DNA from: a virus
Length of the DNA: 13,845 bases
Virus genome (UHGV): UHGV-0175259
Strand: one strand, 5' to 3'
Shown here: one piece after another, positions 8,604 to 9,527 of the stretch
How the letters are laid out: each line of letters begins with the position of its first letter
Position numbering within the stretch: the stretch's first letter is position 1
The notes under the pieces: generated by a model
What the model was told of the DNA's origin: nothing
What the model saw: the letters and a program-made list of their open reading frames with translations, nothing else
Databases searched by the model: none
Made by a program: the position numbers and the translations under genes

Positions 8604-9527
8604 ATGAAAAGTATAGCAACAGCAGTATCTACTATCAATGTACCATTCCACGGCGCAGAGCTTTATGTTGTCAATCACAACGGCGAACCGTATACCCCAA
8701 TGAAACCTATCGTTGAGGGAATGGGGCTAGACTGGAAATCTCAACATAAGAAGATTTCTCAACGCTTCTCGAAGGGTATGGTGGAAATCACCATACCTTC
8801 TGCCGGTGGGGTGCAAGCCATGATTTGTATGGCTTTACGAAAATTGGCAGCTTGGTTGAACAGCATCAGTCCTAACAAAGTCCGCCCTGAAATCCGCGAC
8901 AAGGTAATCCAGTATCAGGAAGAGTGTGACGATGTGCTCTACGAGTACTGGACTAAAGGCCATGTAGTTAACCCACGCAAAGCTAAAAAGGCGTTGCCGG
9001 GTAAAATCACCACTGAACAGCAGGAAGCCATTAAACAACTCGTCATGAGTCGCGGTCAGTCTCTGCCAAAAGAAAAACAGGCGAAGGCGATGATCACCAT
9101 GTGGTCGTCACTGAAATCCCATTTTGGATGTTCGTACAAAGAAATCAGTGATGAGCAGTTTACCGAAGCACTGTCACTTGCTGCTCGCGTTCCGCTTGAA
9201 GGTGAGTTCATTGGCAAACAAGAGAAGAAAACCAACGAGCTTTCTGCAAAAGAAGCAAACAGCCTTGTATGGTTATGGGATTATGCCAACCGCTCACAGG
9301 CGTTATTCCGCGAACTGTATCCGGCATTAAAACAAATTCAATCGAACTATTCCGGCAGATGCTACGACTATGGTCATGAGTTCTCGTATGTTATCGGAAT
9401 GGCGAGAGACGTTTTAATCAATCACACACGAGATGTTGATATCAATGAGCCAGACGGACCAACGAATCTTTCCGCATGGATGAGACTTAAGAATAAAGAA
9501 TTACCTCCTTCAGTACATAACTACTGA
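8604..9527 (+). CDS. ant: Antirepressor, P22 Ant-like
   Basis: 307 aa, similar in size to P22 Ant; sits immediately upstream of a terminator and the tailspike gene, as ant does in the P22 immI region; N-terminal INVPFHGAELYVVNHNGEPYTPMKPIVEGMGLDW looks like an antirepressor N-terminal DNA-binding-type domain. Family assignment from memory only. Confidence 0.55.
   Translation: MKSIATAVSTINVPFHGAELYVVNHNGEPYTPMKPIVEGMGLDWKSQHKKISQRFSKGMVEITIPSAGGVQAMICMALRKLAAWLNSISPNKVRPEIRDKVIQYQEECDDVLYEYWTKGHVVNPRKAKKALPGKITTEQQEAIKQLVMSRGQSLPKEKQAKAMITMWSSLKSHFGCSYKEISDEQFTEALSLAARVPLEGEFIGKQEKKTNELSAKEANSLVWLWDYANRSQALFRELYPALKQIQSNYSGRCYDYGHEFSYVIGMARDVLINHTRDVDINEPDGPTNLSAWMRLKNKELPPSVHNY

Follow-up and report, generated by a model that had tools for sequence, protein, structure and literature searches.

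In phage P22, the antirepressor gene ant belongs to the immI region (the "ant moron"), which lies 5' of the tailspike gene and also contains mnt, arc, and the divergent promoters Pmnt and Pant. The native order, with mnt pointing away from the rightward series arc-ant-tailspike, is found in P22, CUS-3, the intact prophages of Escherichia coli MBT-5 and OkiPb01711, and a prophage remnant of E. coli MRE162. The P22 annotation also places the antisense RNA gene sar at 15021-15090, just before the ant start codon (15091), and its promoter Psar inside ant at 15097-15125. The sar RNA pairs with ant mRNA and contributes to the control of ant (PMC2629481, PMC11016777). Repressors inactivated by P22 Ant include those of phages L, lambda, and 21 (PMC3121763), and no statement that it acts on the 434 repressor was encountered in the literature consulted. 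Another group of antirepressors is tied to the SOS response. The FsoA protein of Fels-1 is encoded in the early-left operon of that prophage under its own cleavable cI-type repressor, and it induces Gifsy-2 (PMC3121763). An antirepressor that is controlled by the cI-type repressor of its own phage and acts on other prophages is therefore already documented (PMC3121763). The LexA-controlled GfoA and GftA proteins of the Gifsy prophages and the Tum protein of phage 186 are likewise SOS-tied antirepressors able to act in trans (PMC3121763).

The window analyzed here, that is, the whole stretch of 13,845 nucleotides from virus genome UHGV-0175259, is a defective P22-like (Lederbergvirus) prophage with 434 immunity, located between sbcB and dacD of E. 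coli. It carries an intact P22-family antirepressor gene, ant (8604..9527, + strand), coding for 307 amino acids. Both the P22_AR_N domain (E 5.7e-45) and the P22_AR_C domain (E 5.8e-30) were detected above the Pfam gathering scores in this single protein of about 300 residues, as in the P22 Ant family. The protein shares 58% identity with P22 Ant across its whole length and about 93% in the C-terminal 110 amino acids. As in P22, ant stands directly 5' of the tailspike gene: its stop codon (9527) is followed by an intrinsic terminator on the + strand (9545..9570), found by the terminator scan and equivalent to the annotated P22 ant terminator, and then by the tailspike ATG at 9627. The tailspike gene (9627..11606, + strand) codes for a P22-type head-binding domain at the N-terminus (Pfam Head_binding, E 1.4e-66). 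The left neighbor of ant is a helicase gene, whereas P22-like phages have DNA-injection, sieA, or mnt genes at this position. The coordinates agree with an earlier sequence-only reading, which had noted the + strand order cro-cII-O-helicase-ant and a gap of only 23 bp between the helicase stop codon (8578-8580) and the ant ATG (8604).

That reading had also concluded that ant lacks mnt, arc, and Pant, and our searches bear this out. Arc and Mnt queries from four phages and prophages, among them P22, MBT-5, and OkiPb01711, gave a best E value of 2.2 by tblastn against the six-frame translation of the window. Thus, no mnt gene divergent from ant was found with three Mnt queries (best E = 2.2), and with three Arc queries no match to arc was obtained immediately 5' of ant, where arc and Pant/Oarc/Omnt would be expected. 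A hidden copy of arc or mnt in the window was looked for by tblastn with the Arc and Mnt proteins of MBT-5, OkiPb01711, and P22, and none was detected. In addition, the DNA that bears Pmnt/Pant and arc in the relatives is itself missing from the window, and homology to the MBT-5 locus (L003) begins only at its position 3501. A separate upstream promoter or operator with an arc-like repressor, which would have contradicted the earlier proposal, was looked for by tblastn and by a promoter scan of 8200-8610 with a cut-off of 8/12, and neither was found. The module is therefore a partial P22 immI region, with ant, sar, and the position beside the tailspike gene in agreement and with mnt, arc, and Pant missing.

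The origin of this arrangement can be read from the sequence to the left of ant. The DnaB-like helicase gene (7387..8580, + strand) is truncated. It consists of 377 genuine codons (7387..8517) and 20 codons from a former arc-ant spacer, followed by TAA, so that its stop codon sits in foreign sequence. The HK620 P protein has 478 amino acids, and the window helicase is short of 101 of these 478 codons. The Pfam DnaB_C domain is covered only at positions 1-184 of 255, and the complete C-terminal RecA-like ATPase domain of a functional DnaB-like helicase is not present. Homology to the helicases of HK620, mEp235, and Sf6 (98-99%) ends at 8517, and homology to the arc-ant spacer begins at 8516 in MBT-5 and MRE162 and at 8510 in OkiPb01711; the start at 8516 corresponds to a point 11 bp past the arc stop codon of MBT-5. 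Three- and four-way alignments, in which the window was set against HK620 P and the spacers between arc and ant in MBT-5, OkiPb01711, and MRE162, placed the deletion junction at 8516..8517, where the two homologies overlap by a 2-bp microhomology, TG. This overlap is the signature of an illegitimate deletion. Homologous or site-specific recombination was rejected as the cause of the junction, since merely 2 bp are common at the breakpoint.

Projected onto the P22 map, the lost DNA amounts to about 22 kb. It begins within gene 12, ends with arc, and includes the nin region, gene 23 (Q), the lysis genes, every head and injection gene, sieA, mnt, Pmnt/Pant, and arc. Consistent with this, no homologue of gp23 (Q) was detected in the window by tblastn. 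In the course of events that we propose, one illegitimate deletion of about 22 kb (on the P22 map) would have joined helicase codon 377 to a point just past the arc stop codon. It would have taken the 3' end of the helicase gene and nin, together with Q, the genes for lysis and the virion, mnt, Pmnt/Pant, and arc, and would have spared sar, ant, the ant terminator, and the tailspike and acyltransferase genes. We consider it highly probable that the helicase-ant layout is a deletion scar in a decaying prophage and not an evolved regulatory arrangement. The earlier suggestion that ant had been placed beyond PR as a regulatory arrangement is accordingly not sustained, as a single illegitimate deletion truncated the helicase and removed all late genes, and the junction was seen nowhere else.

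The rarity of the junction was evident in all collections searched. Among 50,697 phage records, window positions 7300-8517 had 98-99% identity with the O/helicase genes of mEp235, HK620, Sf6, and a large number of Stx phages, and positions 8538-9980 were 96.5% identical to the ant-tailspike region of CUS-3, but no record covered both segments (megablast). No spanning record was returned when the junction or the whole window was compared by megablast with 5,426 complete E. coli genomes, and an exact 35-nt junction probe matched nothing in either the species representatives of GTDB or the metagenome contigs of JGI. The junction is thus seen in a single sequence, the window. This singularity, together with the fact that E. 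coli genomes often hold several lambdoid prophages with common segments, would also suit an assembly chimera of two separate prophage regions of the source genome. Such a chimera is nevertheless highly improbable, because assembler mis-joins occur at long repeats whereas this breakpoint has just 2 bp in common, and because both flanks match one remnant between sbcB and dacD of MRE162 with equal order and orientation and only 6 differences in 12,264 bp, which fits a single locus with a different deletion.

The MRE162 remnant (NZ_CP119404.1, 1819178-1833152) is the closest relative of the window, with 99.9-100% identity over the aligned segments. The two agree in insertion site, integrase, imm434 region, ant, tailspike, and acyltransferase. 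In contrast to the window, MRE162 lacks the counterparts of window positions 6571-7358 (most of O) and 7723-8515 (the helicase core), as seen against 9570-11645 of the MRE162 locus (L005), retains a 1.7-kb segment that includes mnt, arc, and a P63C-domain fragment, and has a wild-type AGGA Shine-Dalgarno sequence before ant. The deletions in the two remnants are mutually exclusive and neither can be derived from the other, and therefore one ancestral prophage must have decayed twice independently. Both remnants kept int-xis, the immunity region, and the ant-tailspike-acyltransferase end, and they represent two independent decay paths of one prophage with the same parts retained. For deletion scars in general, the case carries a caution: genes that form an odd neighborhood in a prophage may have been brought together by a deletion and not by regulatory innovation, which is quickly settled by a look at intact relatives.

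A survey of 84 ant loci placed the window in a wider context. By tblastn, mnt was found upstream in 64 of them and arc in 50, and a helicase gene within 2.5 kb upstream occurred in none except the MRE162 remnant, in which a helicase fragment lies about 1.8 kb 5' of intact mnt-arc. Arc and Mnt were both undetected at 20 of the 84 loci with the one query pair used. About 20 ant loci from IMG/VR (a subset of L066-L085) have a different leader (…CCACGAGAAAACTGATATG), and Arc and Mnt were undetected there with these queries; such loci may have divergent repressors or another mode of control. The 20 loci were rejected as a source of the window layout, since their leader differs and no helicase stands upstream. 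The CUS-3 locus (L001) has been described in the epsilon34 genome paper as apparently lacking arc (PMC2629481). We observed there an unannotated ORF at 2597..2803 (+ strand), in the "bsq2 boundary sequence", that codes for an Arc homologue sharing 93% identity with MBT-5 Arc in the aligned portion.

The loss of mnt, arc, and Pant did not remove every known control element of ant. At 8536..8602 (- strand), over the ant ribosome-binding site as in P22 immI, lies a gene for the sar antisense RNA, which is complementary to the leader and Shine-Dalgarno sequence of ant. It matches Rfam RF00262 over its full length (1-68) with 73.2 bits (gathering score 43, E 5e-14). Its predicted fold consists of two hairpins (-29.7 kcal/mol, z = -4.9) and resembles that of P22 sar. 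The terminator scan found a sar terminator, a 14-bp G+C-rich hairpin with a T-tract, at 8570..8539 (- strand). A Psar-like promoter (TTGATA-17-TATACT, with TG 5' of the -10 element) was found on the - strand at 8610..8638 with a scan score of 10/12. It lies within the first ant codons, and its -10 element ends 7 nt before the 5' end of sar. These positions mirror those annotated in P22. Since the promoter and terminator of sar both lie to the right of the deletion, the sar layer of control probably survived in the window, as judged from these predicted elements. The description of ant as "stripped" of its control in the sequence-only reading thus needs to be divided: mnt, arc, and Pant have indeed been lost, while sar, the Psar-like promoter, and the sar terminator have been kept.

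One nucleotide beside the scar deserves separate consideration. A G>T substitution specific to the window changes TAGGAAT to TATGAAT at 8592 (+ strand), in the ant Shine-Dalgarno sequence. It is one of two differences from MRE162 within 8516..13845 and the sole change in about 1 kb of sar and ant, and it falls on the Shine-Dalgarno core. A G stands at this position in 48 of the 49 loci with an aligning leader, including MRE162, MBT-5, OkiPb01711, CUS-3, and IMG/VR loci, and the 49th has a divergent leader with a gapped alignment. None of the 5,426 E. coli genomes had a 100% match to window positions 8518-8660; the best match, 99.3%, had one mismatch. The duplex with the anti-Shine-Dalgarno sequence was predicted at -4.2 kcal/mol with G and +0.4 kcal/mol with T. 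The substitution also alters a base in a loop of sar, and complementarity between sar and ant is kept. These predictions suggest that the substitution destroys the ant Shine-Dalgarno sequence and would lower ant translation. A motif of 4-6 nt would be hit by one of the 6 SNPs (in 12,264 bp) with a probability of about 0.002-0.003, a post hoc figure for one event where many other sites could have been called "interesting". It is suggestive, and a harmful effect of ant in the absence of Mnt and Arc may have led to selection of the mutation. The SNP beside the scar offers a testable hint that selection disfavors an antirepressor deprived of its repressors.

To the left of the helicase stub, the early control region is of the 434 type, as had been stated earlier for cI, and is 98.4% identical in DNA to phage 434. 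The cI gene (4975..5607, - strand) codes for a LexA-like repressor with an S24 peptidase domain at the C-terminus (Pfam HTH_3 and Peptidase_S24), and its N-terminal domain matches residues 1-69 of the 434 repressor in the PDB (E 9e-38). The 434 Cro protein is encoded at 5711..5926 (+ strand), with a match to 71 of the 71 residues of 434 Cro in the PDB (E 1.4e-42). Three 434-type operators, ACAA-N6-TTGT, are found at OR as well as at OL. Those of OR3-OR2-OR1 (5639..5697; pattern ACAANNNNNNTTGT at 5639, 5662, and 5684) overlap PR (5655..5683, + strand, TTGACA-17-GAAAAT) and PRM (5700..5671, - strand), both located by the promoter scan, and the layout of OR, PR, and PRM is identical to that annotated in Sf6. 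Downstream of cro, sequence inspection revealed nutR (5935..5966, + strand; boxA CGCTCTTA, boxB GCCCTGAAAAAGGGC), collinear with the annotated nutR of Sf6. It is followed by cII (6043..6324, + strand; Pfam Phage_CII, E 4e-30), a small DUF2740 ORF between cII and O on the + strand, and the gene for the replication initiator O (6498..7397, + strand), which is 98-99% identical in DNA to O of HK620, mEp235, and Sf6. The window resembles Sf6, HK620, and 434 in cI, Cro, OR, OL, nutR, cII, O, and the first 377 helicase codons (98-99% identical). In contrast to the window, these phages have N, a full-length helicase, nin, Q, and the late genes.

A second deletion junction was observed at about 4389-4391. 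Here the homology to Sf6/434 begins inside nutL and abuts an ssb fragment without its N-terminus, and the scar is common to the window and MRE162. The N antiterminator gene and the neighboring early-left genes are missing at this scar, and no homologue of N or gp24 that could serve nutR was detected in the window by tblastn, which was also negative for Q, Arc, and Mnt. In the same region, one of the 6 differences from MRE162 (A versus G at 4500) falls within the PL promoter spacer, flanked by the OL operators (4457-4524). In addition, a 158-amino acid ORF at 4574..5050 (- strand) overlaps the 3' end of cI and corresponds in size and position to the 434 Hex ORF. Hex of phage 434 protects the repressor of that phage against cleavage stimulated by RecA and also excludes P22 (PMC3564112). 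The Hex-like ORF, if active, would further damp the SOS derepression of PR.

PR was the only promoter-like site found on the + strand between 5400 and 9800. A relaxed scan of 8200-8610 revealed no + strand site with a score of at least 8/12, and a promoter created at or near the junction was rejected on this ground. No intrinsic terminator was predicted on the + strand between cro and ant, and Rho-dependent termination may occur at tR1 or along the long N-less transcript. The sar terminator hairpin has no U-tract in the + orientation. Because Pant serves both arc and ant in the P22 annotation, ant transcripts must cross this hairpin in P22 as well. Gene order is compatible with control of ant by PR, with N absent; antirepressors of the FsoA/GfoA/Tum type are transcribed from a LexA- or cI-repressed promoter. 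Read-through from PR into ant that depends on 434 cI and SOS is plausible, since PR is the sole promoter-like site found upstream. The earlier proposal that ant may be transcribed from PR under the control of cI was to this extent a fair deduction from the structure of the region.

Such wiring could mean that the locus has been functionally rewired, so that Ant is made on SOS induction under PR and 434 cI and either reinforces its own derepression or inactivates the repressors of other lambdoid or P22-like prophages. PR as the only promoter-like site found upstream, the lack of a predicted intrinsic terminator before ant, and the intact ant ORF are consistent with this possibility, and so are the action of P22 Ant on the heterologous repressors of phages L, lambda, and 21 and the natural precedent of FsoA, which is controlled by the Fels-1 cI-type repressor and induces Gifsy-2 (PMC3121763). 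We nevertheless regard rewiring as unlikely. The one-off scar at the junction cuts short an essential replication gene and occurs in no other genome or phage searched. The lineage-specific loss of the Shine-Dalgarno sequence and the retention of sar both oppose Ant synthesis, and with N missing, transcription from PR is not antiterminated. Moreover, no lytic cycle is possible, and self-reinforcement would bring no pay-off. The self-reinforcing induction that had been envisaged earlier is moot for a prophage with a broken helicase and no N, Q, lysis, or virion genes.

Equally doubtful is a variant of this idea, in which the deletion accidentally gave a broad-specificity Ant 434-cI/SOS control, so that it became a domesticated, FsoA-like trans-inducer of co-resident lambdoid prophages, with the Shine-Dalgarno change as a selected tuning or detoxifying mutation. 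If this were true, the change would show directly, at the genome level, that a polylysogen pays a cost for unregulated Ant. The window would share with FsoA, the LexA-controlled GfoA/GftA, and Tum the concept of an SOS-tied antirepressor able to act in trans. However, those are small dedicated proteins in evolved, conserved positions, whereas the window has a 307-amino acid P22-type Ant of putative activity, placed by a unique deletion and accompanied by features that reduce expression. The likeness to FsoA lies in the inferred wiring alone, which was reached by accident, and Ant belongs to the P22_AR family and probably not to that of FsoA.

In our preferred reading, which takes the layout as a deletion scar, ant would remain untranscribed as long as 434 cI occupies OR. 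When cI is inactivated, for example by RecA-stimulated cleavage, PR transcripts that escape the Rho-dependent terminator tR1 would reach ant through O and the helicase stub. They would have to pass tR1 without N antitermination, as nutR is present and the N gene is absent. The ant mRNA would then meet independently transcribed sar, which would pair with its leader, and it would offer no functional Shine-Dalgarno sequence. Ribosomes on the helicase stub would cross the sar target and stop 23 nt before the ant ATG, and coupled re-initiation on ant could occur despite the lost Shine-Dalgarno sequence. Translation of ant is probably weak, and on these predicted features ant is probably a weakly expressed passenger. 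Its net status would be that of a mostly silent passenger gene in a decaying prophage, not of a new control circuit.

A stricter version holds that ant is fully silent and is becoming a pseudogene, that the Shine-Dalgarno SNP is neutral drift, and that sar is kept incidentally because it overlaps the ant leader. The decay of the prophage by several independent deletions, with further ones in MRE162, would agree with this, as would the lack of a promoter belonging to ant. We consider complete silence very unlikely, because the ORF has no frameshift or premature stop codon and codes for a protein 100% identical to the Ant of two prophage contigs of full size (about 38-41 kb) in IMG/VR, and because the one substitution found within the roughly 1 kb of sar and ant hits the Shine-Dalgarno core, which under uniform drift has only the low chance given above.

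Taken together, the feature is a unique deletion derivative of well-known parts, and it represents ordinary prophage decay. With respect to P22 immI, the two-domain Ant, the positions of sar, Psar, and the sar terminator, the ant terminator, and the downstream tailspike gene are alike, and the differences are the deleted mnt, arc, and divergent Pmnt/Pant, the truncated helicase gene as left neighbor, and the mutated ant Shine-Dalgarno sequence.

Several other genes of the remnant were also inspected. In the tailspike protein, the head-binding domain occupies residues 1-113, and the other residues, about 545, which would hold the receptor-binding or enzymatic domain, match no Pfam family; the gene is intact in both decaying lineages, the window and MRE162. 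In the early-left region of the prophage, a gene of the LprI family (lysozyme inhibitor) with a signal peptide was found at 2131..2856 (- strand), and it is probably a moron or cargo gene. The acyltransferase gene (11677..13599, - strand) codes for an AT3+SGNH protein that is putatively an Oac-like, O-antigen-modifying enzyme. About 190 bp 5' of the start of this gene, an octanucleotide tandem repeat, (AAACTATT)n, extends over 13786-13845 and continues past the end of the window. There are 13 copies in MRE162 substrain UK (L005, 16916-17019), 5 in substrain NOR (L088, 14516-14555), and at least 7 in the window, and this variation in length may result in phase-variable expression of the acyltransferase. 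In CUS-3, heptanucleotide repeats are located at neuO.
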